Below are positions 31,240 to 47,926 of a DNA stretch of 64,000 nucleotides, piece after piece. Numbering within the stretch: the stretch's first letter is position 1; the number at the start of each line of letters is the position of its first letter. This DNA is from Candidatus Marinacidobacterales bacterium (lineage in GTDB: Bacteria > Acidobacteriota > Vicinamibacteria > Marinacidobacterales > SMYC01). Below the pieces are notes generated by a model. That model ran no database searches, had not been told where the DNA came from, and saw nothing but the letters and a program-made list of their open reading frames with translations. A program made the translations under genes and the position numbers. Where the stretch lies: assembly GCA_965224085.1 (NCBI GenBank), contig CBDCYI010000011.1, positions 640,001 to 704,000 on the forward strand, given 5' to 3'.

Positions 31240-33609
31240 TCAGTTCATGTGCAGCGTGATAGACCGGCTCGTGATTTCCCCAGTCTCCAGATCATGAACG
31301 GTGACTTGGATCGTGTGCACTCCCTTGTCGAGCTCGCTCAAATCCGTTTCCAAGGATTCCAGGATGGTGTCCTCCGCGGGTCTCTCGACGACGCGCTTGG
31401 TGACAAGGTCTTCGTTTCCAGAATATTCTGAAAGGAACAAGCCCTGTGCTGCTGCAGCGGCGGCGGTATAGATAGGGAAAAATGCACCCGCCATTTGTGA
31501 TCCCATGTGGGCGAGATTCGACCAGACGCTAGGCTTCTTGTGGAGAGTCACCACGCGCTCCTCAATCTCGTAGCAGGCAAGGCCGTCCTCGTTGACCTCG
31601 GGGTTGTAGAGCTCGAAGTAGATGCGCGAGGGACTCGATTTTTTGATCACTCGAGTGGGCACGGGGTGCCACAGGATATTCTCATCGGGCGTTGCGAGCT
31701 TTGCATTTGGAGCGTCGCCGTCGCGCTTCGAATCTTTCTGATCCCCCATCTGGAGAAACAAATCGCTCAGCCCCAAGTCGCCCGAAGGAAGGTTGGTCGC
31801 AAGATGGCTGCCACGGGCGAGGCCGTACCGGTCGGTATCGGGCTGGTGAAGCTCGACGGCGATGCGGTACTCCGCGGGCTCCAGATCGTAGATCTTCATG
31901 CTGGCCATGAAGACCTTGGGCCCCTTGGAGCGGATGTCTCCCAGCCGGAAGCGTTGCTCGTACCGCCTTTCTACCTTTTCCCACTCGTCATCGTAGACGA
32001 GAACCGTAACCTCTAGCTCGGATTCTGGAGAAAGCTTCTCGTCGTCCAAGCTGGCAAGGTCGGTGGCGAAATCGACTTCGATGGCGGGCTGTCCCTCCGC
32101 ATAAAAGCTGGAGATGGAGACCGACAGCGGGAGGATGTTCTCGCTGGAGTAGAAGTCGGAGGAATCCTGCGCCATGGCCACCTTGACGGATTGCGCCATC
32201 AGATGGCTCTCCTCGACAAGCTGCCGTCCCAGATCCCTGTAGGAGCCGAGAAGGAACCGCTGGTACAGGGGGAGGAACATTTGCCGGCTGGTGTACAGGT
32301 CGCCCAAAGCCCTCGTCCGGTATGCGAGGACTCTCCGGGGATCGTCGGGCGCCGAGGGCCTGGTGGAGGCGACGCCCAAGTTCAAGGCCAGGGTCCACTC
32401 ACCCACCCAGGGGCGCCTTACGAAGTGAAAGGCAAGAGGCTCGGAACCTAATCTCGTTATCTGCCAGGATTCCGTCTTGTCGCTTCCCGAGTAGTAGCGT
32501 TCGGGGATTCGCCTGTCGGGAACGCCATGCCGGAGAAAGACAACGCCCCGATGGTCCACCCAATGGCGGCTGCGTTGCGCCAGCTTGAAAAACTCCAGTG
32601 AATCGTAGTAGGGAAGCTGGGGCGACAGCGATAGAAACTCGTCCTTGTCGGTGAAGTAGCCTCTACCCGTCGATTGAAGCGGATAATCCGTGACGGCTCT
32701 GGCTAGACGACGGTAGTGTCCGGCGATTCGTGGGTTGTCGTCTCGAGTCGGTACTGGATCTCGTCTTTTCCAGAACCGTCGGAAGAAATCCTTTCTCTCG
32801 TCGGTGTCCCAGAGATCCGGGTACTCCTCCCATTCCGAGCTCGAAGCGATGGAGGAGATGTCGCGGAATAGCCTCTCAGCCGTTTGGGGCTCCAACCGCT
32901 CCAGGACGCCCCGGTAGTAGCTCTCACCTTCTTCGTCCAATTTCATTTCGAACAGGGCACGAGCTTGAGTGAGGTCCAGGAGATTTCGAAGCCACCCTGT
33001 TGGTTCGGTGACGGCGACGTCTCGAAGCTCTTCGAGCGCCGCTTTGGGTTTTTCGAGCCTGAGTTGGATCTCGGCGCGCTGCCAGGCGGCGACGGGACCC
33101 GGGTGCGAAGCGATGACTTTCGCATGACTTTTCAGCTCCTTTTTGCTGGGGTTGAGAGCGAGCCAGAGATCGAAGACCTCGTCACCAAGAGAGGTGAGCT
33201 CCAATAACTCCGCCCTCAGATCCTTGAACTTCACTTTCGGCTCCGCTCTGAGCTCCAAGAGCACGCGGGCATAACGAAGCTTTGGAGAATCCGGTCCGCT
33301 TCGCGCAACCTCGAGGGCCTCCTCGTTTCTTCCAAGCTGGGAGAGAGTGACGGCAAGGCCGAGGCGAGCTTCGGCGTGAGTATCCAAGATGCTCTGGAAA
33401 GCGCCCTCCGCGAGGCCCCAGTCACCGGAGGCCGCATTCACGTATGCTTCCTCGAGACCTGGAGCGGCGGCCGAGGCATCGTCGAGCTCGAGCAAACTCA
33501 CGAGCCGATCGGGTTCGAGACCGATGTAGTGGGCCTCGGTGGTCGTCGATATAAAAAACGCCAGGCTCGCCAGGCTCGCGAGTCGGGACTCCCATCGATT
33601 TCTGCTCAT
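31240..33609 (-). CDS. Exported TPR plus GWxTD-like domain protein
   Basis: FFRRFWKRRDP.PT..NP...HYRR...A and HWVDHRGVVFLRHGVPD; TPR-like N-half; signal peptide. Confidence 0.8.
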   Translation of the reverse strand: MSRNRWESRLASLASLAFFISTTTEAHYIGLEPDRLVSLLELDDASAAAPGLEEAYVNAASGDWGLAEGAFQSILDTHAEARLGLAVTLSQLGRNEEALEVARSGPDSPKLRYARVLLELRAEPKVKFKDLRAELLELTSLGDEVFDLWLALNPSKKELKSHAKVIASHPGPVAAWQRAEIQLRLEKPKAALEELRDVAVTEPTGWLRNLLDLTQARALFEMKLDEEGESYYRGVLERLEPQTAERLFRDISSIASSSEWEEYPDLWDTDERKDFFRRFWKRRDPVPTRDDNPRIAGHYRRLARAVTDYPLQSTGRGYFTDKDEFLSLSPQLPYYDSLEFFKLAQRSRHWVDHRGVVFLRHGVPDRRIPERYYSGSDKTESWQITRLGSEPLAFHFVRRPWVGEWTLALNLGVASTRPSAPDDPRRVLAYRTRALGDLYTSRQMFLPLYQRFLLGSYRDLGRQLVEESHLMAQSVKVAMAQDSSDFYSSENILPLSVSISSFYAEGQPAIEVDFATDLASLDDEKLSPESELEVTVLVYDDEWEKVERRYEQRFRLGDIRSKGPKVFMASMKIYDLEPAEYRIAVELHQPDTDRYGLARGSHLATNLPSGDLGLSDLFLQMGDQKDSKRDGDAPNAKLATPDENILWHPVPTRVIKKSSPSRIYFELYNPEVNEDGLACYEIEERVVTLHKKPSVWSNLAHMGSQMAGAFFPIYTAAAAAAQGLFLSEYSGNEDLVTKRVVERPAEDTILESLETDLSELDKGVHTIQVTVHDLETGEITSRSITLHMN

Positions 33610-33921
33610 GATGAACCCTCTATGATGTTTACTTGTCAGGCCATGTACGGATTGTTGGTTCGGGGTGCTAGGCGTGTTCGCCAGCGCGCTCCTGTCACTC
33701 GGGTGTGATCCCAACACACGTCAGAAGTCCGAAAGCCAGTGAAGAGCCTCGTGTGTGGTGCGAACGTTCCCGTGCTCCGTTTTCTCATTTTCATGGGAGC
33801 ACCTCCTGTCAGGCTGTCCGCGCTTCGGTTTCTGTAGACTTCCAGCGTAGCTCGCCGAGGGAGCTCCTCCCGTGAAGCACTGCACAAGAGACGGAACCAC
33901 GGAGCGCTACGATGCGAACGT

Positions 33922-35340
33922 ATGCTTATTTTTTCGAAGCGACGCGATGCGGTGTATGGACGAGCACAGTCTGTTGCCCGGGACACGCTTCTGCTCGCCG
34001 CCTTGACACTGATGGCGACGCCGACGACGGCGAGTTTCAGCTTCCTGTCTGCGCGACCCCTGTTCTACCCGTCGCTCGCTTCACAACAAGCGAGCGCGAC
34101 GGCGGAGAAAGAGAAATCCGTCGGAGAGACGCGTCGCGGTACGGAAACGGATGAAGAGAATAGGACTGGCCTCGACGACGAACTAGGCGCGACGTTGAGG
34201 GAGCTCGATGAGCTCCTGCTGCGTGAGCAAGAGCTGCTGGAGGAGAGTCGGGAGGCCGCGGAGTCGAGCTCTTCGGATAGCGGTAGCGCCGAAGAAGGGG
34301 AAGAAGACTCGGCCCGCGACGGTGAGAGTGAGGGTGAGGATAGTGCCCGCACGCCCGGTGGTGGCTCGAGTGGAGGATTCCCCGATGCGCCACCCGCTGT
34401 GCCCCTACCGCCGCCTGCCGGCATGCTCGCGGGCGGGGAACGGACGCAAACGACAATCGGTCGCGCGCCACCGCCACCGGACGTCAGCGACGGCGGAGAG
34501 ACGCGTCGCGGTGCGGAAACGGATGAAGAGAAAAGGGCTGGCCTCGACGACGAACTAGGCGCGACGTTGAGGGAGCTCGATGAGCTCCTGCTGCGTGAGC
34601 AAGAGCTGGCTGAGGAGAACCGTGAGGCCGCGGAGTCGAGCTCTTCGGATAGCGGTGGCGCCGAAGAAGGGGAAGAAAACTCGGCCCGCGTCGGTGAGAG
34701 TGAGGGTGAGGATAGTGCCCGCACGCCCGGTGGTGGCTCGGGCGGAGGATTGCCCGATGCGCCACCCGGTGTGCCCCTACCGCCGCCTGTCGGCATGCCC
34801 GCGGGCGGGGAACGGACGCAAACGACAATCGGTCACGCGCCACCGGACATCGGCGACGTCGGAGAGACGCATCGCGGTACGGAAACGGATGAAGAGAAAA
34901 GGGCTGGCCTCGACGACGAACTGCGCGCGACGTTGAGGGAGTTCGATGAGCTCCTGTTGCGTGAGCAAGAGCTGGTGGAGGAGAGCCGGGAGGCCGCGGA
35001 GTCGAGCTCTTCGGATGGCGGTGGCGCCGAAGGCGGGGGAGAAGACTCGGGCGCGAGCGCCGCGGACGACCGCGAGGGTGAAGATAGTGCCGGCACGCCT
35101 GATGGTGGCGCTGCCGGAGGATTGCCCGATGTGCCCCTACCGCCGCCGACGGGCACTCCCGCGGGTGGCGCGACAACCGGTCGTGCACCACGTCCACCGG
35201 ACGTCGGCGACGGTCGTGATGACGATATCGTGGCACGGCAACTCCGTGAGGCCGCGCAGAATGAAAAAGATCCCGCGCTGCGTGAAAAGCTGTGGGACGA
35301 GTACCGCGCCTACAAGCACGGAGCCAGCGTCAACAAGTAA
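33922..35340 (+). CDS. Exported acidic/Pro-rich protein with three ~122-aa repeats; first gene of the envelope operon (start uncertain)
   Basis: Repeats of ETDEE.R.GLDDEL.ATLRE.DELLLREQE; unique C-terminus DDDIVARQLREAA..EKDP.LREKLWDEYRAYK. Confidence 0.75.
   Translation: MLIFSKRRDAVYGRAQSVARDTLLLAALTLMATPTTASFSFLSARPLFYPSLASQQASATAEKEKSVGETRRGTETDEENRTGLDDELGATLRELDELLLREQELLEESREAAESSSSDSGSAEEGEEDSARDGESEGEDSARTPGGGSSGGFPDAPPAVPLPPPAGMLAGGERTQTTIGRAPPPPDVSDGGETRRGAETDEEKRAGLDDELGATLRELDELLLREQELAEENREAAESSSSDSGGAEEGEENSARVGESEGEDSARTPGGGSGGGLPDAPPGVPLPPPVGMPAGGERTQTTIGHAPPDIGDVGETHRGTETDEEKRAGLDDELRATLREFDELLLREQELVEESREAAESSSSDGGGAEGGGEDSGASAADDREGEDSAGTPDGGAAGGLPDVPLPPPTGTPAGGATTGRAPRPPDVGDGRDDDIVARQLREAAQNEKDPALREKLWDEYRAYKHGASVNK
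34123..35200 (+). repeat. Intragenic tandem triplication (periods 372 and 366 bp)
   Basis: GGAGAGACGC..CGCGGT.CGGAAACGGATGAAGAGAA starts at 34123, 34495 and 34861. Confidence 0.9.
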
Positions 35341-35381
35341 CCGGGCAATCATTGAATGACGATAAATGAAGGAGGACAGCG

Positions 35382-36615
35382 ATGCGGAGCCCAGATTTGA
35401 TTCTTCGGTGGACCGTCATCTGTATTTTCGCGGGAGGGCTTTTAGCTCCGTCTCTTTCGGCCAGAGAGAACCGGCAAGTGGACGCCATCCAAGCCCATTC
35501 CGAGATCCCGGAAGAAAGTCTCTTGGACGTAGGGATTCTCGTCTTCGATCCGGGACTGCCAGAAGACGAAGAGGAGGTCTACGATTTGGAAGCAAAGGGC
35601 GTCTTCGAAGGTGTCCGCAAGGCCGAGGCACGCTACATAGCAATCCAGCTCCAGCGGACTCTGGAGTCCACCGGTAACTGGGGCGCCGTGCGCGTCGTCC
35701 CGGCCGCGAATCGAGTGGACGTGAAAGTGTCGGGGCGCATCGTCACCTCGACGGGAAAGACTCTGGTCGTGAAGCTCCGCGTGGTGGATGCCCGCGGCCG
35801 CATTTGGCTGAACAAAAAATACAAGGGCAAGGCGAATGTAGGCTCCTATAGGCGTAAGGAAAGGTGACCGGCGGGATCCCTTTCAAAGCCTCTACAACCG
35901 AGTCGCCAACGACATGCTGAAGTTTCGCGACAAGAAACTCGACGCGGAGGATTTTCGGCAAGTGCGCATGGTCTCCCGCCTCGAGTTCGCCGGTGATCTT
36001 GCTCCCACCATCTTTGCCGACTATCTGCGCGTGGATAGGAAGGGACGCCGTTTCATCGAAAAACTGCCGGCGGAAAACGATCCCATGATGGAGCGGATCG
36101 CCGAGATTCGCGAACGGGATCGGATGTTCGTCGATACTCTCAACGAGCATTATGCCGACTTCTACACGAAGATGGATGAACCCTATGACAGTTGGCGATC
36201 CTTCGCCTACGAAGAGCAGAGAGAGCTCGACAGCCTGAAGAAAAAATCGAAGTGGGCGAAGATTCTAGGGACGGCGGCCGTCATCGGCGGTGCCGTGGCG
36301 GCCGCGAAGGGCGGAGCAGGAAGCTTTGCCGGACAAGCGGGTATCGGTGGCGGGATCGCCGCGATTACCTATGGGATGAAGCAGTCGGGGGATATCAAGA
36401 TGCACCTCGAGGCCATGCGTGAGCTCGGGGCCTCGCTCGATACCGACGTCTCCCCGATGGTGATCGACGTGGAAGGCGAGGTCACGAAGCTCAGCGGCTC
36501 TGTGGACATCAAGTACGCCACGTGGCGCCGGTTATTGCGGGAGATCTTCGCCGCCGAAACGGGGATTCCCATCGACCCCAACACGGAGGTCGATCTGGGC
36601 GCCCCGAGCAACTGA
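35382..36615 (+). CDS. Exported protein with a glycine-zipper segment; 1-nt frameshift near 35860
   Basis: AGGAGG RBS and signal peptide. ORFs 35382..35867 and 35914..36615 join if one A is removed from GAAAGG. Contains GTAAVIGGAVAAA..G...GIGGGIAA. Confidence 0.7.
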
Positions 36616-36710
36616 GTCGTTCGCGACACCTGCACCAGCGTCATGTATGCGCTAGTGCAAGGTCAATCGCTCCATCGAAGGTTGACGTGAGTCAGAGAGA
36701 GGTGTGGCTG

Positions 36711-37895
36711 ATGCAATATCAGGAAAGTTCGGAACGCGCGGTGGCCACGCGTGCCGAGAAGTTCAAGCTCAGGCCTCCGCCGCGTGTGACGGTGAAACCC
36801 ATTCCGCTGGAATCAAAACGCCGGGTCAACGAGCTTCAGGGCGGAAAAAGTGGCGTCGGGTGGATCACGGTGACGGCCCTCGTCATCCTTCTCCTGATGG
36901 CGTTCTCGGTTTTCTTCGTCCTGCCGACGTGGGTGCACGACCGTTCGGCCCAAGCGGCGTTCATTGTCGAGCCTGTTGAGAGTGCCGAGCCTGTCGAGCC
37001 TGTTGAGCGTGTTGAGCCCGTCGAGCGTGCAACCGACGTTGCGGTAGCGTCCGCTGCGCCATTGCCCGTCACGGCGATCGAGAGCTCGCGGGCGCCGGCG
37101 TCTCCCAAAGATGAAGCGGAGCCTGCGCGGGAGCGCGCGACGGCCTCCCAACACGAAGCCGCGGCCGTCGGTCCGGTGGACGGGACGACCACCGAGCAGG
37201 CCTTTATCGAGGTCATGTCCCAAGGGATGGCGGCGCTCGAACGCGGAGACTACCGTGCCGCACGGGATGCTTTCCAGCGAGCCAACAGAATGCGACCAGC
37301 GGCGGCACAAGTCGCCGATGGACTGGCGCAGGCCGAGCAAGGCCTGAATCTTGAGGCGATGGCCGCCCTTCGCCAAAAGGCGCTCGCCTTCGAGGCGCGG
37401 GAGGCGTGGCGGGAGGCGTCGAAGCACTATCAAGCGGTGCTGGAGCTGGACCCGGCGATTCGCTTCGCTCAGCAAGGAAAGGCGCGGTCTCTAGAGCGAG
37501 CCGAGCTCTCCAAGCTGCTGGAGTTTCAACTGAAAAACCCATCGCGACTGTCCGATGACAAAGTGCTCGAAGAGGCGTCCGCGCTCCTCAGCACCTCTTC
37601 GGGAATCGAGCCCGCCGGTCCCGAGCTCCGGCGGCAGTTGAGCGCGCTCGAAGCGCTCATCGCCAAGGCCTCGATGCAGGTACGCGTCGCTTTCGAATCC
37701 GACGACTTGACCGAGGTCGTGATCTACAAAGTGGGCCGCCTGGGAAAATTCGCTCACCGGGAGCTGGACCTTCGTCCTGGCACTTACACGGTCGTGGGTA
37801 GCCGGCGCGGCTACCAGGACGTGCGGCGGCAACTCGTCGTCGCGGCGGGCGTCGGGCCCGAGCGCGTGGTGGTGCGCTGCGAGGTGAAGATTTGA
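36711..37895 (+). CDS. Bitopic membrane protein: TM, Pro/Glu linker, TPR-like helices and C-terminal PEGA-like domain
   Basis: TM WITVTALVILLLMAFSVFFVLP; GDYRAARDAFQRA; LRPGTYTVVGSRRGYQDVR. Confidence 0.75.
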   Translation: MQYQESSERAVATRAEKFKLRPPPRVTVKPIPLESKRRVNELQGGKSGVGWITVTALVILLLMAFSVFFVLPTWVHDRSAQAAFIVEPVESAEPVEPVERVEPVERATDVAVASAAPLPVTAIESSRAPASPKDEAEPARERATASQHEAAAVGPVDGTTTEQAFIEVMSQGMAALERGDYRAARDAFQRANRMRPAAAQVADGLAQAEQGLNLEAMAALRQKALAFEAREAWREASKHYQAVLELDPAIRFAQQGKARSLERAELSKLLEFQLKNPSRLSDDKVLEEASALLSTSSGIEPAGPELRRQLSALEALIAKASMQVRVAFESDDLTEVVIYKVGRLGKFAHRELDLRPGTYTVVGSRRGYQDVRRQLVVAAGVGPERVVVRCEVKI

Positions 37896-40324
37896 CGTCA
37901 CCGATCTACATCGAGGATGTTCGAGGCAGCCGCGTCGTCGCGGCTGGTGCGTTCCCCTTGACGCTGGGCGGGCCGGATGCTGACGTGGAGCTTCCAGGCG
38001 TTCACGCTCCCGAGCCCGTGGGCTACCTCGGTCTCTCGGAGGGAGAGCTCTTCGCACAGCCCGCAGAGACCGGCCCAGGGCTGGTCGGTAACGGCGCCCG
38101 TGTGTCGACGTCTCAGTGGCTCCACCCCGGTGACGTTCTCGTCATCGGTCACGCCCGGATCGTCGTCGAGCATGATGGGACGCTCACCCGATTGCGAGTG
38201 GAAGCAAACGGCGTGGAGAACAAAACGGACCCGCCCGAGGTGGTTTCTGCAGCGGCGCCACCGAAGCTCCATGCCGAGCTTTCCTCGAGCACGATCAAAC
38301 CCGTCGCTTTCGAGCCCGCTTCCATCACCACCGGACGTGGCAAGCGGCGCGCCCCTCGTCCTGCGGTGCTCGCGTTTTGGACCTCCGTGGTGCTTCTCGT
38401 CGCTTTCGGCTGGCTCGTCTTCAGCACACGATCCATCGAGGTTCGGATCGAGCCGCCAGCGGAGAGAGTCTTCTTCGAGGGCGGTCTTTATGCTCTCGAG
38501 CTGGGCGGCCGGCATCTCGTGCGCTCCGGGAGCTATACCCTCGTCGCGGAGAAAGAAGGTTATCGAAAACTGGAGGCTCGAGTCACGGTGACGAGTGAGG
38601 GCGGTCAAGTCTTCCGCTTCACCCTGCAGGAGCTCCCGGGTCGTCTCACCGTCGAGACGCCGGTGGATGGCGCCGTTATATGGATCGACGGCGAGAAGGC
38701 CGGGGTGACGCCGCTCGATCCGGTAGAGCTCCCAGCGGGCGAGCACGAGGTGCGGATTCGAGCCGAGCGCTATCAGGAATTCTCCACCCGGGTGAGCATC
38801 CAGCGTCGTGGCGTCGAAATATTGAAGGCCGAGTTCGTACCACGCTGGGCGCCCATCACGTTCCGCTCGGCGCCTGAGGGCGCCATCGTGCGCGTCGATG
38901 GCAAGAATCTGGGCACAACCCCCATCACGGTGGATCTCTTGGAGGGAGCTCATGCATACGAGCTGAGCGTGCGGGGGCGCAAACCACACCGAGGCCGGGT
39001 CACCGTCGTGGCCCGCGAAGAAAAAACTCTGCCCACGATGAGCCTTGCCCTCGTCGATGGGAATCTGCATCTCGAATCCAGCCCCGCGGAGGCCAATGTA
39101 ACCATCGACGGCGTCTACCAGGGTCAGACCCCATTGGACGTGGATCTTTCGCCCGGGGACGAACACGAGATGGGTGTGTCACGAGCCGGCTACGAGTCCC
39201 AATCGCGCCGAGTGCGGATCGACTCGGGCGTGAGCCAAACTCTGCGTGTCGATCTCGCCGTTCAACTCGGCGAGCTCGCGATCGCGGCCGACCCGCCCAC
39301 CGCCGAGTTCTTCGTCAACGGCGAGCCTCGCGGCCAGGCTAGCCAGCTCATTCGCCTTCCCGCCGTGGCGCAGCAGATCGAGATTCGGAAGGCGGGCTAC
39401 GAATCCTTCACCACAAACATCACTCCGCGGCCCGGATTCCCGCAAAGCATCGAGGTCACTCTCAAAACGTTGGAGGAGGCCATCACGGATGCCAGACGAC
39501 CCGTCATCAAAAGCGCTCAAGGACACGAGCTGCGGCTCATCGCCCCGCGCCGCTTCCAGATGGGCGCCTCGCGCCGCGAGCCGGGACGGCGGGCCAACGA
39601 GGCCATCCGGGACGTCGAGCTCACCCGCTATTTCTATCTCGGGACCAAGGAAGTCACCAACCGAGAGTTTCGCGCCTTCAAACCGGAGCACCGCTCGGGC
39701 TCGGTGAGAGATATCAATTTGGAGGGTGACCTTCTCCCCGTGGTTCGCGTGACCTGGGAAGAAGCGGCCGCGTACTGTAACTGGCTGAGCGATCGGGATT
39801 CACTCCCCCACGCCTACGTCCAGAAGGGAGCGACGCTGGCGCCGGTAACGCCTCCGAACACCGGTTACCGGCTGCCCACGGAAGCGGAATGGGCGCGGGC
39901 GGCGCGCTATCCCGATGGGGAGCGCGGGCGCAAATACCCTTGGGGTGGCGCGCTGCCAGTAGCCCCGGGCTCGGGAAATTATGCCGATGCCTCCGCCCAG
40001 GCATTGGTGGCCGCCATCCTGCCGAAATATAACGACGGGTTTGCGGCGACGGGCCCCGTGGATAGCTTCGACCCCAACCCGATGGGTCTTTTCAACCTGG
40101 GAGGAAACGTCGCGGAGTGGATCCAGGATCTTTATACGATCCGCCCATCGGGCACATCCAAGCTCGTACGGGATCCGCTGGGCCCCACGCAAGGGAAGTT
40201 TCATGTCATTCGGGGGTCGAGCTGGATGCACGGCCGAGTGACTGAGCTCCGTCTGAGCTTCCGCGACTACGGAAATAAGAAGCGGCCCGATGTGGGGTTC
40301 CGCATTGGGAGATACGCCGAATAG
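37892..40324 (+). CDS. FHA-like, TM, multiple PEGA and C-terminal FGE/sulfatase-modifying-factor domain protein
   Basis: FPLTLGG...L.PGDVLVIG (FHA-like fold), a TM, repeated S.P.GA.V.IDG..G.TP, then EVTNREF, PVVRVTWEEAAAYCNWL, YRLPTEAEW and GNVAEW. Confidence 0.9.
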   Translation: MTSPIYIEDVRGSRVVAAGAFPLTLGGPDADVELPGVHAPEPVGYLGLSEGELFAQPAETGPGLVGNGARVSTSQWLHPGDVLVIGHARIVVEHDGTLTRLRVEANGVENKTDPPEVVSAAAPPKLHAELSSSTIKPVAFEPASITTGRGKRRAPRPAVLAFWTSVVLLVAFGWLVFSTRSIEVRIEPPAERVFFEGGLYALELGGRHLVRSGSYTLVAEKEGYRKLEARVTVTSEGGQVFRFTLQELPGRLTVETPVDGAVIWIDGEKAGVTPLDPVELPAGEHEVRIRAERYQEFSTRVSIQRRGVEILKAEFVPRWAPITFRSAPEGAIVRVDGKNLGTTPITVDLLEGAHAYELSVRGRKPHRGRVTVVAREEKTLPTMSLALVDGNLHLESSPAEANVTIDGVYQGQTPLDVDLSPGDEHEMGVSRAGYESQSRRVRIDSGVSQTLRVDLAVQLGELAIAADPPTAEFFVNGEPRGQASQLIRLPAVAQQIEIRKAGYESFTTNITPRPGFPQSIEVTLKTLEEAITDARRPVIKSAQGHELRLIAPRRFQMGASRREPGRRANEAIRDVELTRYFYLGTKEVTNREFRAFKPEHRSGSVRDINLEGDLLPVVRVTWEEAAAYCNWLSDRDSLPHAYVQKGATLAPVTPPNTGYRLPTEAEWARAARYPDGERGRKYPWGGALPVAPGSGNYADASAQALVAAILPKYNDGFAATGPVDSFDPNPMGLFNLGGNVAEWIQDLYTIRPSGTSKLVRDPLGPTQGKFHVIRGSSWMHGRVTELRLSFRDYGNKKRPDVGFRIGRYAE

Positions 40325-40351
40325 GAAGAACTTGGACTAAGGAGGCCTGAG

Positions 40352-40544
40352 ATGAGATTCGTTCTATATGCGCTCTTGGCATTGACTCTTTTGGGAGCTC
40401 GTCTGGCATCGACGATGACCGTTACGAGTGGACAAAGCAAACAGAAACAAGACGAGCTTCCCACGTTGAGACGAGCTTCCCACGTTCACCCCTACGGAGA
40501 AAGTACCCGCGGGCATTGCTGTCTCGTTTCCCGCGGATATCTAA
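40352..40544 (+). pseudogene. 57-aa exported peptide ending SFPADI, frame broken by a 19-bp tandem duplication
   Basis: AAGGAGG RBS. Removing one copy of the repeat at 40450-40486 gives ...QDELPTFTPTEKVPAGIAVSFPADI*, ending 4 nt before the MotA-like start. Confidence 0.7.
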
Positions 40545-40548
40545 GTAA

Positions 40549-41346
40549 ATGAAAAAAAACTACCCGGTCGAATTCATGTATCAGGCGTTCTCGTTGCTCG
40601 TGGCGGTGATCCTCGTCCACGCGGTCTACGTGTTGCTGGTGAGGCCGAAAGCGGATGTCGTCCTGGCCACCGCGCAGGCGTTCATGGAGGTCGAGAAGGG
40701 CTACGTCCAGGAGCGATCCTTCTGGGTCATCGTCCGCGATATCGAACAGGAATCCTGCTTCATCCTCATGTTCTGGGCGCTGGCCATCATCGCGTATAAG
40801 GGTGTGCTGGCCTCTCGCGAGCACCAGCTTCTGCAGAAGGACCTCGTGCCGCTCGCCGCAGGCTCGAAGGTCCTTCCCGAGGACGCCCGGGAATATGCCC
40901 GGCAGATCCAGTCGCTTCCCGATATCGAGCGAAGCCGCTTATTGCCGCGCGCTCTTCTGTCGGCGCTCGGCCGCTTCCGAGCCACGCGCAACATTCAGGA
41001 CGTTTCCGCCACCGCCCACGCGGTGTGCGCCTCGGAATCGGATCGGCTCGAGTCGGAGCTTTCCATGGTGCGCTATATCGCCTGGGCCATTCCTTCCATA
41101 GGCTTCATCGGAACCGTCCGCGGCATCGGCGAGGCCCTCGCCCAGGCCCACAAGGCGGTGGAAGGCGACATCGCCGGGGTTACCCAGAGCTTGGGTGTCG
41201 CCTTCAACTCCACTTTCGTCGCGCTCCTCATCAGCATCTTGCTGATGTTCGTCCTGCATCAGCTTCAGCTTCAACAGGATCGACTCGTTCTGGAGACGGA
41301 CAACTATCTCGACGGCCGCCTCATCGAGCATCTTCAGGTCTCCTAG
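40549..41346 (+). CDS. MotA/TolQ/ExbB proton-channel family protein
   Basis: AIPSIGFIGTVRGI and GVAFNSTFVALL motifs; four hydrophobic segments. Confidence 0.92.
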   Translation: MKKNYPVEFMYQAFSLLVAVILVHAVYVLLVRPKADVVLATAQAFMEVEKGYVQERSFWVIVRDIEQESCFILMFWALAIIAYKGVLASREHQLLQKDLVPLAAGSKVLPEDAREYARQIQSLPDIERSRLLPRALLSALGRFRATRNIQDVSATAHAVCASESDRLESELSMVRYIAWAIPSIGFIGTVRGIGEALAQAHKAVEGDIAGVTQSLGVAFNSTFVALLISILLMFVLHQLQLQQDRLVLETDNYLDGRLIEHLQVS

Positions 41347-41376
41347 CGATCGAGGTTTTCACTATTTTGGATTCTC

Positions 41377-42468
41377 ATGGCGCGCAGCACACCTAATGTT
41401 TTAAGCCTGTCCTTTCTGGACGCGATGACCTGCGGGTTCGGCGCCGTGGTGCTGCTCTTCATGATCCTCAGCGCCGGCTTCGGCGAGCGCTCGGGGAAAA
41501 TGAGCGGGGAGCTTCAAGGTGAGGTCGACCGTCTGCACAAGGAGGTTTTGGAGGGTTATCAGAACCTGGTGGTGCTCCGAAACTCCGTCACGGAGATCGA
41601 TCGGGAAAACGTCGTCACCGCGGGTCTTTCGAAGCGGCTCCTCGAGACCCTCGAGACGATTCGAGTCGAGCTGGCCAATGACGAGAACGAGACGCTGGCG
41701 CGACGAGAGCACGTCAACAAGCTCAAGGCGGATCTCAAATCGCTCGAGGAGGATGTCAAACGCCTTTCCGCGGCGGCCCCGAGCGAAGAGACGCCGGGCG
41801 ACAAGCTTCTGAGCTTCGTGGGAAGCGGGGACCGGCAGTACCTCACCGGCCTGAAGGTCGGCGGAAGACGTATTCTCGTGCTCGTCGACACCTCGGCGAG
41901 CATGCTGGGGGAGACCATCGTCAACATCATTCGCCGGCGCAACATGCCCGACGAGGCGAAGATCCGCGCCGCGAAATGGCAGCAGACCCTTTCGACGGTG
42001 AACTGGATCGCCACTCAGATCCCCCCCGCGAGCAGCTTTCAAATCTATACGTTCAACACTCGAGCAGGCGCCGTGGTGGCGGGGACCGACGGGACGTGGC
42101 TGAACGGGGGCAACCGTGGGGATCTCGACAAAGCAGTCCAGGCCTTCCGACGCGTGGTTCCGGAGGGCGGCACCAATCTCTATCAGGCCTTCAAGGCCAT
42201 CGAGACGCTGCGCCCGGCGCCGGACAATATCTTTCTTCTCACCGACGGGCTCCCCACACAAGGGAGGAAGCCGCCCCGTGGCCGTACCGTGTCCGGTAAG
42301 GATCGCGCCAAGTTTTTCAACGAAGCTCTCTCCAAGCTCAGCGGTAGAACCCCCGTCAACGTGATCCTCTTCCCCATAGAAGGCGATCCCCAGGCGCCCA
42401 GTGCCTTTTGGAAGCTGGCCGTCTCCTCGGGAGGCGCCTATGTGAGCCCTTCGGAGGACTGGCCATGA
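41377..42468 (+). CDS. vWA protein 1 with ExbD/TolR-like N-terminal anchor and coiled coil
   Basis: SLSFLDAMTCGFGAVVLLF; heptad-rich linker; MIDAS DTSAS...GGT...LTDG. Confidence 0.88.
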   Translation: MARSTPNVLSLSFLDAMTCGFGAVVLLFMILSAGFGERSGKMSGELQGEVDRLHKEVLEGYQNLVVLRNSVTEIDRENVVTAGLSKRLLETLETIRVELANDENETLARREHVNKLKADLKSLEEDVKRLSAAAPSEETPGDKLLSFVGSGDRQYLTGLKVGGRRILVLVDTSASMLGETIVNIIRRRNMPDEAKIRAAKWQQTLSTVNWIATQIPPASSFQIYTFNTRAGAVVAGTDGTWLNGGNRGDLDKAVQAFRRVVPEGGTNLYQAFKAIETLRPAPDNIFLLTDGLPTQGRKPPRGRTVSGKDRAKFFNEALSKLSGRTPVNVILFPIEGDPQAPSAFWKLAVSSGGAYVSPSEDWP

Positions 42469-42496
42469 AGAGAGCTCCCGGCGCGGTGGTGTAGAA

Positions 42497-43474
42497 GTGT
42501 TCAGCCTCTCTTTCCTGGACGTCATCTGTTGCGGCTTTGGCGCCATCATCCTACTTCTCGTATTGGTCAAGATTGGTGAGCCGAGGGCACTCGAAGCCGC
42601 TCAGGCGGAACGGATAGGCCTGGTGGCAAAGCTGCAAGAAGAGCTATACGAGATCCGGGGGGAGACGAACGTGCTCAACCGCAAGCTCGTGACGAAACGG
42701 GAGCAAGTCTCCGAGGAGACGGTCAAGGTTGCCAGGCTCCGGGGCGACCTCAGCAAGATCCAAGGACAATTTGCCGCCAGCGCGCAGCTCTCCCAAGTCA
42801 GCGACATCGTCGAGGGGAGGTTGTTGGCCGCGCAGCAGGAGCTGAGCGAAGAACAGAAGCGCCTTCGCGGCAAGCGCTCTCGGCCGCGCCCGAAAGACGC
42901 TCCCATCGGCGGGATCCCCGTGGACAGCGAGTACATCATCTTCATCATCGACACCTCGGGCAGCATGAAGAGATTCGCCTGGCCTCTGGTGATGAAGAAG
43001 CTAGTGGAGACGCTGAGCATCTACCCCAAAGTGAAGGGCATCCAGGTGATGAACGATATGGGGCAGTACCTGTTCAAGAGCTACTCGGGAAAGTGGATTC
43101 CCGACACGTCCGGCCGGCGCAAAGTGATTCTGGACCGGCTGCGTGGCTGGGCCCCGTTCAGCAACTCGAGCCCGGTGGAGGGGATCACCCGCGCCATACG
43201 AACCTACGCCAGCCGGGACCACAAGGTGAGTCTCTACATCTTCGGCGACGAGTTCACGGGAGATTCCATCGATGCGGTGGTGGAAACGGTGGATCGGATC
43301 AACCGGAAAGATGCCGATGGCCATCGTTTGGTGAGAATCCACGCCATCGGTTTCCCCACCGTGTTCTCGAATGCTGGATTTTCGCAGAACACCGGGATCC
43401 GCTTCGCCACCTTGATGCGCATCCTCGCCCGCAAAAACGGCGGCGCCTTCGTGGGACTGAGCCGGGCTCGGTAG
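42497..43474 (+). CDS. vWA protein 2 with ExbD/TolR-like N-terminal anchor and coiled coil
   Basis: SLSFLDVICCGFGAIILLL, DTSGSM and FGDE. The coupled ATG at 42465 is out of frame by 1 nt. Confidence 0.88.
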   Translation: MFSLSFLDVICCGFGAIILLLVLVKIGEPRALEAAQAERIGLVAKLQEELYEIRGETNVLNRKLVTKREQVSEETVKVARLRGDLSKIQGQFAASAQLSQVSDIVEGRLLAAQQELSEEQKRLRGKRSRPRPKDAPIGGIPVDSEYIIFIIDTSGSMKRFAWPLVMKKLVETLSIYPKVKGIQVMNDMGQYLFKSYSGKWIPDTSGRRKVILDRLRGWAPFSNSSPVEGITRAIRTYASRDHKVSLYIFGDEFTGDSIDAVVETVDRINRKDADGHRLVRIHAIGFPTVFSNAGFSQNTGIRFATLMRILARKNGGAFVGLSRAR

Positions 43475-43483
43475 CTCGTCGAC

Positions 43484-43592
43484 GGTATTGTCAAGTTGAG
43501 GGCTTCAAGGCCGATTCGACCCCAAGGTATGGGTTGACGGCGTGTCCTCGAGCCCCACGATATTGGGGCGCGATTCGACAACTAATAAGAAA
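43484..43592. repeat. MITE-like element, copy 2 (right end degenerate)
   Basis: Colinear with 12898-13006: GGTA.TGTC.AGTTGAGGG...CCGATTCGACCCCAAG...CCCACGATATTG.GGCGCGATTCG. Confidence 0.75.
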
Positions 43593-43804: not shown

Positions 43805-46202
43805 CTAACCTGTCGATGCCAGCGCTTTGAGCCGCTGCTCCGCATCCGCGGCTAGCCCATGTTTCCCTTTTAGGTCTCTAAGTCATCATAAACAAAGGAC
43901 TGAGATCCGCGGTTTGTCTCTACGCTGACAGCACCTCCTCGGAGAAGGCTGGCGGGTCGCGTTCAACGATTCCGAGTGCAGTCAGGATCGAGTTGGCGCG
44001 AGCGGTGCCGCGCGTGACGACGCGCTTGGTCCGCCCAGAACCCAGCTGTAAGTCGACGAGCCGGACCGAGCGTAGCGCTTGTAGTGCCTCGGTTGCGGAC
44101 AGGTCGAGTTCGGCGACCTTGAGCTTTTTCTCAAGAGCCCGATGCACAAGGAAGGCCAGCGTAGCTACGAAAAGATGTGCCTCCACACGCTCATCGGTCT
44201 GGTGGTAAACGGGACGCATCTCAATGACATCCTTAAGGCATGAGAAGGCTCGCTCGACCTCGTTTAGGTCCTTGTAAAGGCGCACGGCGTCGACCGGAGA
44301 GAGGTTTTGCTCCTCGGTTTGAATAACGTACTTACCCTCGTAGGCTTGCTCGCGCTTGAGGTTGACCGGGTGCTCGAAGAAGCGGAAGCGAGCGTTTTTG
44401 TACTCCCAGTCGTAGTAACGGTGACCGTGGTGGCGTGCCTGTATGCGCGCGGCGGCGGCACCGATTTTCTCGGGGGCTTTCAATCGTCCCTCGCGCACGC
44501 GGCGCTCAAGGGCCTCGAATGCCGCACGGGCACGTCCCATGGCCCGCAGCCTCTGCCCGCGCTCGTAGGCGAGCCTTTCGTCGCTGTGAACGACGAAGAT
44601 GCGCACGCCAGACTGCTCGGAGCGGACTTCTTGCACACGAGTCTTAGGTGGCTCGGCTTTTTCGCTCACCGTGATGCCACCAGGGCAGTCGATCCACTCT
44701 CCGCTGGCGCGCTCGATGTAACGATAGACCTCCTCGCGCCGTCGTCTTTGCAGCCCGACGAGATAGCCCTGCTTGCGCGAGCGCACCACCGCCAGGCTGT
44801 CGCTCGTTACCATCCCTCGGTCGCCGACAAAAACCACGCGGTGCAAACCGAATCGTTCGTTGAGATCGTTGAGCACCTGCGGCACCGTTTTCGCGTCACG
44901 CCAGTTGCCGGCGAAAACATGGTGGGCGATCGGCCAACCGTCCACCATCACCAGACCGACAAGCACTTGCCGGTTACGCGGTCTGCGGTCGCGACTGTAG
45001 CCGTGGGCGCCGAGCCCCGGAGGGCCTTGACCTTCGAAGTACGTCGACGTCAGGTCGTAAAACACCATGTCAACCTCAAGCGAAAACAGATCCCGCAAGC
45101 GCAAAAACAGCTCTTTCTCGATCTGTTCTTTGCGGGCATGCAGCTGGTCGAGCGTTCGGTACCATTGCTTGAGTTGGCAAAACTCCACGCGAACCCGCGG
45201 GGAGCGACTCGCTCGCCGCTCCCCATCATCGCGCCACTGCGGCACCCACCGCCGCCCCTGCCGGTCGCAGACGAAGTCGGTCTCGAGCCAGCGCGCCAGA
45301 CCGTGCTCGCTTGACGGAGCACATAGCCGGTTGGCGACCAGCACCAAAGCTCGCTCGCTTAGCGCCACTCCGTCGCGCTTGCCGCGGCCTCCGAGCCGGT
45401 CGAGAATCTGCTCCAGTCCGAGCTCGCGCCACAGCGTCGCCGTCACCACCATCGGACCCCAATCCCACGCGTCTGCCCCCGCGATCTGCTCGGCTGCTCG
45501 CTCGGTGTCGGCCGGTTCACCGGCCCCAAGCAACCGATTGAGGGAGTCGAGATTGGCAACTAGGAGATCCTTGCGCCCCAAGTTGCACACTACGCGTTGC
45601 TTCGGCTTGCCGTGCTCCCGATACGACTCGACCAGGCGGACATACTCATGTTGAACCCCTTTGCCGCCTGCGGCCCGAACGATGCGGAAGAACATAACCT
45701 GTCCTCACGCATACTACATATCATTGTCCACGATTACAACGTATTAATGGCGCTCAAAGCACAATATCTGTCTCTACGTTTTGGGCAAATTCAACCCCCG
45801 TTCCTTTGAATTCAGTCACTTACGAGCGTTAGGGTGCCCATAAAGGGTAAACATGGGCTAGTTCCCGGGTCAGATCGCCGGCGCCGATTTCGCGGCCGAG
45901 ACTGCCGCCTGTCCCGACCACAGCGAAGAGAAATCGCTGGACCCTGCCGCCTCCGCTTTTGCTTTCAGCGGCGCCAGGGCCCTGCCAGCCGTCGGGAACG
46001 CTGGCGCCCGGTCCGACATCGGCCCGACCTCCCGCATGACTCGATTCATCAGCCCCCGCGACGGTCTGCCGGAAAACACGTTGGTCCATGCAGTTTGGTC
46101 GTCACGCGCGGCGCGTAGTGCAGCGCGGTGTAGATCCGTGATCAACGACTCCGGCGTGAAAAGGTAAGCGGTGCCGATTTGAGCACCTGCCGCGCCGAGA
46201 GC
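43805..46202 (-). pseudogene. Nitronate monooxygenase C-terminal remnant split by IS1634
   Basis: GAQIGTAYL, TNVFSGRPSRG and SSLWSGQ motifs. DLTRE|LAADAEQRLKALASTG* resumes at 43855-43805 across the IS. Confidence 0.8.
43856..45857 (-). mobile_element. IS1634-family element (2002 bp) with an intact transposase at 43920..45695
   Basis: VFYDLTSTYFEG, GYSRD, VFVGDRGM and Y..L.EVERAF..LK motifs; IRs CCCATGTTT.CC.TT; CTAG on both flanks. Confidence 0.92.
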
Positions 46203-47688
46203 TGCTGCTCACACAGACCTCACGGACAATTGCGAGCAGGTTTTCGACGAGCCCCTGTTCTGGCGACACTCCAGACAGCAGGGCCGGCGCGTGAAGAGTT
46301 GTAGCGATAGCAACTCACTGCTCGATTGGCCGCGCTCCTGACCTGCTGCGCCCTCTTGCGGTGCTCGGAGAGCCGCTCTAGCAGATTCTCCTCACGGCCG
46401 AAGTACACCTCGTCTGGTGTACGACCGCCGAGAACGGCGCGCGCGATCTTTTCATTGTGCTCACCGACGTAGAAGGCGACGAGACGCCGTACCGCCGCCG
46501 TACTGTCGAGGGCGTTCAGGAAGAGCCATGCGTGCTTCAATTGTCGCCAAAACGCTTCGATCAAAGAGTTCGAGCAGACTATGTCGATTTGCGCGAGCAC
46601 GCGACTGAGAGAACTTGAATCCTTGAGAAGTTGATCTACCTCGCCGAAGTTCTCCGAACCGCCGTCGGTGACGACAAGCACGCTGGCGTTCGCTGCGGCG
46701 ACAGGGACGTTCTCTGAGGCCTCAATGAGCAGCTCGCGTGTTGTTGCCGAGCTCAGAGCGTCGCTCACCCGCCAAGCAAGAATCCTTCGGCTGAAGTTGT
46801 CGATGACCGCTTGGAGGTAGATTCGGATGCCGGTCGTCAGCCGGAGCACGGTTGTGTCGATTTGCCAATACTCGTTGGGCCGCGTTGCTCGGAGGCCTTC
46901 TTTGGGCTTCGCGGGATGCACCCGCCTTCGAGGACGCTTCCAGCTGCGCTCGTGGATCATCTTGTACCAAGTGCTCACACAGGCGAAGAGCTTGCCAAGG
47001 CGCTGCACGTAGAGAGCCACGTTCTGGATCGCTATATGACGATATGTCTCGGCCTCGACAAAATCCCTCATCGTGGAGACTTCGTCACGCGTGAGCTGGC
47101 TGGGAAAGGATTTCGGACAGCTCGATTGATCGTCAAGCCCGCAGCCCTCTTCTTTGCGTCGCCAAGCGTGATAACGCGCCGATGAGATGCCTACGATCTG
47201 AAGTGCGGTGCCCAGCGACAGCAGGCCGGTCGCCGACGCGATCGCGCGCAGAACGGCGGATTGTTTTGCACCATCGGGAAGGCGATCGCCGTCGAGTTTA
47301 CCGCCACGGAGATTCAACAGCCGCACCAGTAATCCGATGATCGCCGACTGCACTCTCGCTCGCTGACATAGTTTATCGACCTGCTCCAACAGTTCGTAGA
47401 CCTCTAGCTCAACGTCGACCGCAGCGACCACTGGACGCACCTCGCCACGTGCCCATGTGCGCCGCGTCGAGGCCGGGATGGAAACGTCCCGGAACAGGTC
47501 CGCGTTACCGGTCGCGGCGATGGCATCGCGCAGCCTATGGTCGTAGGTTTGTCGAACTCGGAGGCTTCCTTCCATGCCCAAGCATGGCAGGCAGCTATTC
47601 ACATGGCCAGCCGGCCACTCATAGAAGTCTGCGAACGATCCTGTCGAACGTTCGCTCTCCTTACTCCAGAATGATCGTGCGAGTAGCA
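46203..47688 (-). mobile_element. rve/DDE-type IS (IS3/IS481-like); transposase ORF 46220..~47560
   Basis: PNEYWQIDTT, VIDNFSRRILAW, TDGGSEN and NSLIEAFW motifs; imperfect IRs TGCT(G/A)CTC(A/G)CAC; no target duplication seen. Confidence 0.8.
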
Positions 47689-47926
47689 CTGCAGCGAAGC
47701 ACCAGGCCTTTGTCGGAACCGGCTACTTTGATGCCGTACAGAGCACGATCACCGGCGGCAAAGCATCGATAACCGCGATGCGAGGCAGCACGGAAGAAGC
47801 ACAGTTCTCCCTGCGAGAGGTCGACGAGTCGAACGAAGCGACCCGAACGTCGCCGACACTGGCGGCGCCATGATTGCGGGTCGTAGTGCCAACGACAGCT
47901 GAAGTCATTGCGGAACGGCTACACGG

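Follow-up and report, generated by a model that had tools for sequence, protein, structure and literature searches.

The DNA considered here is a stretch of 64,000 nucleotides (hereafter the window) from contig CBDCYI010000011.1 in the assembly of a Candidatus Marinacidobacterales bacterium (GCA_965224085.1; positions 640,001 to 704,000 of the forward strand), and the system in question is a compact operon near its middle that encodes a MotA/TolQ-like channel subunit, a pair of vWA proteins with N-terminal membrane helices, and a set of exported or membrane-anchored partners (Table 1). An earlier note, made from the sequence alone, had described these genes as co-directional and closely spaced or overlapping, and the open reading frames (ORFs) do lie where it placed them: positions 33922-43474 hold a series on the + strand, tightly packed, with intergenic gaps of 27-92 nt or else overlaps. 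The same note took the operon for a full eight-gene system, whereas the window in fact holds a reduced second copy, without a kinase and an FHA protein and with one of its genes frameshifted.

Table 1. The operon, features within it, and its neighbours in the window (TM, transmembrane; MIDAS, metal-ion-dependent adhesion site; aa, amino acids)
Feature	Position	Strand	Basis or remark
g1, exported acidic protein, r1 family, 472 aa	33922-35340	+	ORF; homologues upstream of r2 in relatives
~370-nt unit, three copies, within g1	34119-35156		
g2, r2 family, signal peptide, Gly-rich 'zipper' near C-terminus	35382-36615	+	split into two ORFs, 35382-35867 and 35914-36615
AAA run with one extra base, within g2	35860-35862		
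g3, TM helix, then TPR, then PEGA-like C-terminus	36708-37895	+	C-terminal half of r3
g4 (r4), 810 aa, cytoplasmic N-domain, TM helix, five PEGA, FGE-like domain	37892-40324	+	Pfam
g5, small exported peptide, 66 aa as assembled	40352-40552	+	stop at 40550-40552
19-nt tandem duplication, within g5	40450-40486		
g6, four-TM MotA/TolQ/ExbB-family channel subunit, 265 aa	40549-41346	+	PF01618
g7 (vWA1), TM helix with Asp15, ~100-residue coiled coil, vWA with full MIDAS	41377-42468	+	VWA_2
g8 (vWA2), g7 paralogue, TM helix with Asp8, coiled coil, divergent vWA	42497-43474	+	paralogy
g0, 825 aa, weak TPR match, divergent upstream neighbour	31240-33717	-	domain scan
transposase DDE_Tnp_ISAZ013	24518-25594	+	3e-138
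transposase DDE_Tnp_1	43920-45695	-	domain scan
integrase rve	46220-47689	-	domain scan

The channel, its vWA partners and the co-encoded proteins

The assignment of g6 to the MotA/TolQ/ExbB channels stands, as it matches PF01618 (MotA_ExbB) at 3.8e-14, its 53 bits exceeding the cut-off of 22.9, and no ExbD, TolR or MotB gene adjoins it. Because its scores on the tolQ and exbB equivalog models fall far under their cut-offs, we regard it as a member of the PF01618 family and not as TolQ or ExbB proper; its matches to solved structures are weak (MotA, E 0.014; TolQ, E 0.02). The motifs P..G..GT in TM3 and NST in TM4 are conserved in 58 relatives, with a conserved Thr in each of the two helices (GT and ST, respectively).

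Directly beside this tolQ-like gene lies g7, and vWA2 is always the next gene after vWA1 where loci extend far enough. The two proteins are paralogues (23-31% identical) whose initial helix follows, in both, the pattern S-x-S-F-L-D, and the Asp anchors proposed for them are borne out: D15 of g7 and D8 of g8 sit in N-terminal TM helices, the first invariant in 31 of 31 aligned relatives and the second conserved, together with DTSGS, in at least 90% of 41. In vWA1 the MIDAS is likewise invariant (DxSxS at 171-175, that is D171, S173 and S175, with T266 and D290), and the PDB matches of residues 40-153 are coiled coils only; in vWA2 the rest of the MIDAS motif is not seen. The vWA helices of the window contain no His, neither g7 nor g8 matches PF02472 (ExbD/TolR) or OmpA, and no ExbD or OmpA domain was detected by Pfam or NCBIfam in any of the nine operon proteins. 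Homologues of g7 number at least 7785 at E≤1e-3 in a large protein collection, the best of them 95% identical and many 60-75%.

The separation of these channels from ExbD holds across the genome, where four MotA_ExbB and three ExbD genes are encoded. The ExbD genes all accompany two canonical channels, in one set consisting of a TolQ-like, an ExbD/TolR-like and a Pro/Glu-rich protein of 247 aa (C11:1283507-1285459) and in another of an ExbB-like and two ExbD-like proteins (C5:1311333-1312954), and there is none beside either of the genome's two vWA-linked channels. The 247-aa protein may, at a guess, be TonB/TolA-like.

Two further proteins of the operon have a TM helix. For g3, the TM helix, TPR and PEGA-like C-terminus that had been read from the sequence were all found, but the matches are weak: the best TPR match (E 6e-6) is under the Pfam cut-offs, and the C-terminus gives a weak PEGA/CarboxypepD_reg-like match (CarboxypepD_reg, E 0.036). 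In a related locus (L003) the corresponding protein, r3, is 793 aa long with a Pkinase domain (2e-31) fused ahead of the TM-TPR part; g3 aligns to r3 residues 542-793 only, the N-terminal Ser/Thr kinase domain being missing. The second protein, g4, has no lipobox, and its internal TM helix and cytoplasmic N-domain are followed by five PEGA domains (6e-49) and an FGE-sulfatase domain (8e-42). In an alignment to human FGE both catalytic Cys positions are occupied by other residues and, judged by these, the FGE-fold domain at the end of the five PEGA domains is non-enzymatic. An FHA-like N-terminus that had been ascribed to g4 was not recovered, as its N-terminal 133 aa, like the equivalent N-termini from L003 and from the second copy described below, match 0 Pfam families at E≤5, with no FHA or YscD-type match even at this threshold.

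The first gene of the operon, g1, encodes three tandem repeats of ~123 aa followed by a conserved helix-rich C-terminal motif. At the DNA level the three copies are 100, 94 and 71% identical over a 300-nt reference copy, and it is because of them that g1 is longer than its relatives, which have about 300-350 aa; searches of Pfam and NCBIfam returned no family for it. By a simple pattern, a lipobox-like signal is present in at least 23 of 38 r1 relatives and in 30 of 55 r2 relatives, and g1 of the window lacks the signal that is common among the former.

The 'glycine-zipper exported protein' next to it had been taken for a single ORF and is in fact two, divided by a one-base frameshift in a gene that is intact in relatives, where r2 is a single gene of 404-475 aa (~410; 408 in L003). 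When r2 is aligned to the window by tblastn it falls into two pieces in different frames that meet at 35858/35863. The frameshift is common to the contigs of runs X19, X22 and X23 (three runs from three studies), and a ~97% relative in sediment run X1 is without the extra base. No PDB match was found for r2, nor a consistent Pfam family across 35 members (E≤1), and in the Protein Atlas both g7 and r2 fall only in clusters of their own families, apart from an automatic 'DUF2884' label without Pfam support.

Between g4 and the channel gene lies g5, a micro-peptide gene. A small exported peptide is indeed encoded where one of 57 aa had been called, but the ORF as assembled is 66 aa long and its conserved end is out of frame, shifted by the 19-nt tandem duplication away from a frame that stops at 40542-44. 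Contigs of X19, X22 and X23 are without the 19 extra bases, and the peptide is intact in all three. Since it is unseen in these runs, the duplication is either an assembly feature or a rare variant; the depth of X1 around 40450 is 3.7. In 67 of 71 loci the channel gene is immediately preceded by one for a peptide ending in FPV(D/N)I, the four misses being three loci at contig ends and L012, which the pattern did not match, and the peptide is found in ten of ten distant loci as well. The last residues, F-P-V/I-D/N-I, are the sole universal part of the peptide. Many columns, spread over several partner proteins, co-vary with the D/N position, and as the N state is nearly that of one clade this co-variation does not discriminate between partners. 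The notion that an xPSx stretch in the peptide mimics an FGE substrate motif was dropped, the stretch not being conserved in the minimal subfamily described below.

A conserved gene set, present twice in one genome

In a scan of species-representative genomes 95 relatives were confirmed and 80 loci kept, all of them from metagenome-assembled genomes (MAGs), with hosts among Acidobacteriota, Desulfobacterales and other Thermodesulfobacteriota, Gammaproteobacteria (including Ca. Rariloculaceae), Rhodospirillaceae and Polyangiaceae. The survey of gene neighbourhoods that had been suggested as a check on the operon thus gave a clear result: a single gene order on a single strand is conserved in 80 of 80 loci, up to the limits of the contigs, in Acidobacteriota, Thermodesulfobacteriota, Pseudomonadota and Myxococcota alike.

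Many of these loci contain two components that the window copy does not. In L003, the channel and vWA1 genes are separated by one for a 487-aa protein whose C-terminal part is an FHA domain (2e-9), and such a gene is present in 70 of the 70 loci that have both channel and vWA1; a Ser/Thr kinase domain, fused or encoded by a gene of its own, occurs upstream of r4 in 35 of the 53 loci that offer sufficient sequence. No Pfam family (E≤1) covers the N-terminal ~370 residues of the FHA protein in 50 members. For the FHA protein of the genome's second copy (C5:169681-171090; L151:5672-7090, - strand) weak Hsp70-like or actin-related PDB matches were obtained (E 0.009-0.35), and it is tempting to speculate that this N-terminal part may be an ATPase of the actin/Hsp70 fold.

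The two components are nevertheless not found everywhere. When 401 Pseudomonadota genomes were sampled, 19 had a match, 16 of them in a subfamily whose members are ~30% identical to the window vWA1, and ten loci of this minimal subfamily read r1-r2-r3 (no kinase)-r4-peptide-channel-vWA1-vWA2, with no FHA gene. As the subfamily is naturally without both, the kinase/FHA module is, on this comparison of gene content, accessory, and the gene set of the window equals the minimal type. Among the kin of the minimal subfamily are proteins under the names of Mariprofundus sp. NF, Mariprofundaceae MAGs, Pseudoalteromonas xiamenensis (99% to the protein of L142), P. luteoviolacea, Alteromonas, Alishewanella, Aliidiomarina, Glaciecola, Thalassomonas, Idiomarina sp. 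and I. loihiensis. Only five of 301 sampled Acidobacteriota genomes, that of the window (G000) included, hold the gene; the distribution of the system is sporadic, and the vWA1 tree mostly tracks phyla (6 changes, compared with a mean of 27.4 after shuffling).

The genome of the window (6.87 Mb in 12 contigs) also carries a complete second copy, at C5:167571-178635, with an intact r2, a kinase and an FHA gene. A vWA1 homologue is present in 24 of 31 related genomes, a tally that counts G000 and the unpublished G027, and two full copies are found only in G000, the number being one in 23 of the 24. In the vWA1 tree the C5 copy groups with same-genus copies (98% to that of L029), and the window copy stands alone inside the order-level clade, on an end branch of 0.32 compared with a median of 0.05. 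Neither the window operon copy nor its upstream neighbour g0 was found in the same-genus genomes. As it lies in strain-specific DNA, the window copy is best read as an acquired extra, and probably as a laterally acquired one. The contigs of X19, X22 and X23 are identical to it over 35300-43500 except for the 19-base omission at 40450. In X1, contigs run without a gap through both the r2-g3 junction (36369-36747) and that between g6 and g7 (41188-41427), and the layout lacking kinase and FHA gene is therefore common to a lineage and not a one-off. The stretch 35300-43500 recurs in runs labelled with three different organisms, and ~97% relatives are seen in sediment metagenomes.

A copy with this history might simply be a decaying, non-functional duplicate on its way to loss, with the C5 copy doing all of the work. 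The frameshift in r2, which the window shares with the contigs of three runs, would fit such a fate, as would the deletion of the kinase domain and of the entire FHA gene that comparable loci never lack, the long end branch, the adjoining transposases, and a g1 that is repeat-expanded and has lost its lipobox-like signal. We nonetheless consider it unlikely, as what has been retained does not look released from selection. When positions at least 95% conserved in relatives are taken as the measure of constraint, the window copy keeps 17 of 19 (89%) in r1, 47 of 48 in r2, 25 of 25 in r3, 97 of 99 in r4, 96 of 98 in the channel, 82 of 84 in vWA1 and 95 of 99 in vWA2, which puts the six families besides r1 at 96-100%; g3, g4, g6, g7 and g8 have zero internal stops and the peptide gene is intact in three of three runs. 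Moreover, the junctions that lack kinase and FHA gene are also those of a ~97% relative with an unshifted r2, and a whole subfamily with cultured members has this same minimal gene set. The window copy, then, is reduced but under sequence constraint, with r2 broken in this strain, and it may depend on the intact C5 copy or be only partly functional. Being a reduced, partly broken extra copy, it is not a suitable reference for the system.

A proposed envelope motor and its alternatives

Ion-driven 5:2 motors power flagella, Ton uptake, the Tol-Pal system, gliding, the type IX secretion system (T9SS) and Zorya. In the reading that we prefer, and to which we give reasonable though not high confidence, the operon of the window is a streamlined extra copy, probably gained laterally, of a conserved envelope motor, likely one that transduces force to the outer envelope. 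The observations concern which genes are present, how they and their motifs are conserved, where the system occurs and in what state the copy is; from these we infer stoichiometry, rotation, binding partners and output. The engine would be the MotA/TolQ-like channel, presumably a pentamer, in which the vWA1/vWA2 pair would stand in for MotB, TolR or ExbD, each member contributing an Asp-bearing TM helix, a coiled coil of ~100 residues and a MIDAS vWA head. Ion flux through the channel would turn or pull the vWA1/vWA2 stalk, and the heads would pass the work on, in the periplasm, to the co-encoded partners. These would comprise the inner-membrane protein with five PEGA domains and a catalytically dead PorK/FGE-like end, the TM-TPR protein, r1 and r2 (often predicted lipoproteins), and the micro-peptide with its near-invariant FPV(D/N)I. 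As a whole the system would most likely work in the manner of Tol or Ton, transmitting force to the outer part of the envelope. Where kinase and FHA protein are encoded, as they are in the majority of Acidobacteriota and a single proteobacterial clade, assembly of the machine is presumably regulated.

Several observations weigh against the preferred reading. The VWA_2 match of g7, at 27.4 bits, is barely at the cut-off of 27, and g8 has no Pfam vWA match at all, so that its vWA fold is inferred from paralogy. When vWA1 was compared by hhalign with the genome's own ExbD proteins the Asp residues did align, but over 16 columns and at a non-significant E of 0.2. The operon encodes neither an outer-membrane barrel nor a peptidoglycan-binding domain, nor any obvious substrate, and any statement of the system's output is for this reason a guess. 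Finally, this particular locus may not work, given the frameshift in r2 seen in three runs and the two absent components, of which, by their predicted domains, the FHA protein is always and the kinase mostly present in the closest relatives.

The engine itself has a precedent in the literature. The main text of PMC12204202 (Mol Biol Evol 2025) describes a family of TM-tethered vWA proteins that are associated 'extremely tightly' with tolQ homologues and without tolR or exbD; the genes are mostly heterologous pairs, the family was seeded on Idiomarina, its hosts are given as Proteobacteria and Verrucomicrobia, and its function is stated there to be unknown. In the AlphaFold 3 models presented in that text, a transpore helix (TPH) sits inside a TolQ-like pentamer with its conserved Asp ringed by Thr. 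The vWA1 of the window aligns over its full length with Idiomarina sp. P0419 (28% identity, E 2e-45) and in part with I. loihiensis P0460 (1e-32), proteins from the genus on which the family was seeded, though not necessarily its seeds. Because of this homology to Idiomarina proteins, and judged by sequence, the core of the window system is a member of the predicted TolQ-like/TPH-vWA kind. It shares with that kind the order of a tolQ-like gene followed by a heterologous vWA pair, with no adjacent tolR or exbD, as well as the N-terminal helix with a conserved Asp, the lack of the SHLS/His motif of TonB and TolA, and the conserved Thr of the channel. It differs in two features. The first is its range, as the family here extends to Acidobacteriota, Thermodesulfobacteriota and Myxococcota. 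The second is its company, since the main text of PMC12204202 is silent on r1, r2, the TM-TPR and PEGA-FGE proteins, the micro-peptide and the kinase/FHA module, and the words 'kinase' and 'sulfatase' have 0 occurrences in it.

In the literature searched, neither a functional study of the system nor a paper on the wider cluster was found. Two leads were set aside, a Ferrigenium preprint that concerns CbbO and Tol-Pal, and Treponema proteomes, which are unrelated. The proposal that the operon encodes a distinct motor lacking a functional description therefore survives only in its second half, as the core had already been predicted, at least by the main text of that paper.

Relative to the TolQR-TolA, ExbBD-TonB and MotAB systems, the likeness is that of a PF01618 channel with P..G..GT in TM3 and T in TM4 and of a partner with a single TM helix whose Asp lies close to the periplasmic end. 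The partner here, however, has no ExbD/TolR domain and no OmpA-like peptidoglycan anchor, and it is made up of two unlike proteins, each with a long coiled coil and a vWA head; nor does a third subunit of the TonB/TolA type adjoin, whereas canonical TolQR and ExbBD sets are encoded elsewhere in the genome. For the control module the nearest parallel is the PpkA-Fha1 threonine-phosphorylation pathway of the type VI secretion system (T6SS). Like that pathway, the full version of the system would combine a membrane Ser/Thr kinase that has a periplasmic sensor part, an FHA protein and a membrane machine; no T6SS genes accompany it, however, and the window copy has neither kinase nor FHA protein.

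It is an intriguing possibility, which we put forward only tentatively, that the TolQ-like/vWA pair is the mere engine of an unrecognised trans-envelope machine of eight to ten genes, one with fixed parts, with the FPV(D/N)I peptide as a key, with clade-specific control by kinase and FHA protein, and with regulated and unregulated copies side by side. In such a machine the peptide, of ~15-40 residues when mature, might serve as a ligand, a clutch or an assembly key for the MIDAS of a vWA head, for the TPR or for the groove of the FGE-like domain. A branch of motors with a vWA pair as stator partner is itself not new, having been predicted in the main text of PMC12204202. What is added here is, first, that the channel-vWA core is always accompanied by a fixed set of partner genes, in at least four phyla; second, a previously unnoted partner micro-peptide with a near-invariant C-terminus; and third, the occurrence of near-identical or homologous proteins under NCBI names of cultured Pseudoalteromonas, Alteromonas, Idiomarina and Mariprofundus. 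Together, the partner set, the peptide and the cultured carriers make the system open to direct experiment.

An FGE-fold domain in the company of an ion-driven motor recalls gliding and secretion machines, and the operon might on that account encode the motor and ring of an apparatus like the T9SS PorLM-PorKN or Agl-Glt, its PEGA-FGE protein forming a PorK-like ring under the outer membrane that is driven by the vWA stalk. The FGE-like domain of g4 gives a match to PorK over 195 residues (1e-15) and one to the GldK model (TIGR03525; 3e-30), several components are lipoprotein-like, and, as far as its sequence tells, the system shares with PorLM(GldLM)-PorK(GldK) an ion-driven inner-membrane motor, a long periplasmic dimeric stalk and a pseudo-enzyme domain of the FGE fold. 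Myxococcus Agl-Glt, for its part, has a TolQ-like channel (AglRQS) with two partner subunits (AglQ/AglS), TPR and FHA components and the vWA adhesin CglB, and two different channel partners as well as TPR, FHA and vWA components are likewise seen here. We think this reading distinctly improbable all the same. The likeness to GldK/GldJ that had been drawn for g4 is not specific, as human FGE (6.5e-19) is a better PDB match than PorK and the GldK score, 105.7 bits, is far from the cut-off of 350; the domain tips a protein that has five PEGA domains and is anchored by a TM helix, and is not part of a lipoprotein. The motor proteins are unrelated in sequence to those of the T9SS, and the conserved cluster contains no PorN, Sov, barrel or other T9SS gene. 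In contrast to Agl-Glt, the vWA domains here are fused to the stator-partner helices, no Glt homologues are seen and the cluster is far smaller; moreover, the hosts include groups in which gliding is not known.

A Zorya-like role in conflict or defence, with the channel sensing envelope perturbation and signalling inward through kinase and FHA protein, is very improbable: the weak ZorA match of g6 (PADLOC, 2.7e-5), the kinase/FHA module of many members, the patchy distribution in Acidobacteriota and Pseudomonadota and the strain-specific, transposase-flanked setting of the window copy might suggest it, but the other eight of nine operon proteins have no PADLOC match, g6 with its 265 aa lacks the long tail of ZorA and is matched over only 102 of 505 model positions, the conserved cluster is devoid of nucleases, proteases, NTPase effectors and ZorC/D-like genes, and both the largely phylum-wise vWA1 tree and the single copy in nearly all related carrier genomes speak against it.

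Flanking genes and minor observations

No TonB, TolA/B, Pal, OmpA or flagellar domain is present in the 18 flanking ORFs scanned, in agreement with the earlier note, and a scan for promoters and terminators gave counts not above those of shuffled sequence. The divergent upstream gene g0 has no match (E≤1e-20) in four of four same-genus genomes and lies outside the cluster that is conserved in the 80 related loci.

Two related loci depart from the usual layout in ways that may be recorded here. In L067 (7798-9993) the channel and FHA genes form one ORF of 731 aa, with the channel match in two pieces, so that the genes are either frameshifted or truly fused. In the Olavius-associated Delta 1 bacterium (L012:6266-6725), small overlapping ORFs of 72 and 83 aa lie between r4 and the peptide gene, and these may be an antitoxin/toxin pair.

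Three of the flanking ORFs scanned are mobile-element genes, which lie inside 25 kb of the window, and the two that are downstream of the operon, the DDE_Tnp_1 transposase and the rve integrase, form the downstream edge of the strain-specific stretch; the gene beyond them has orthologues of 94-95% in two same-genus genomes.

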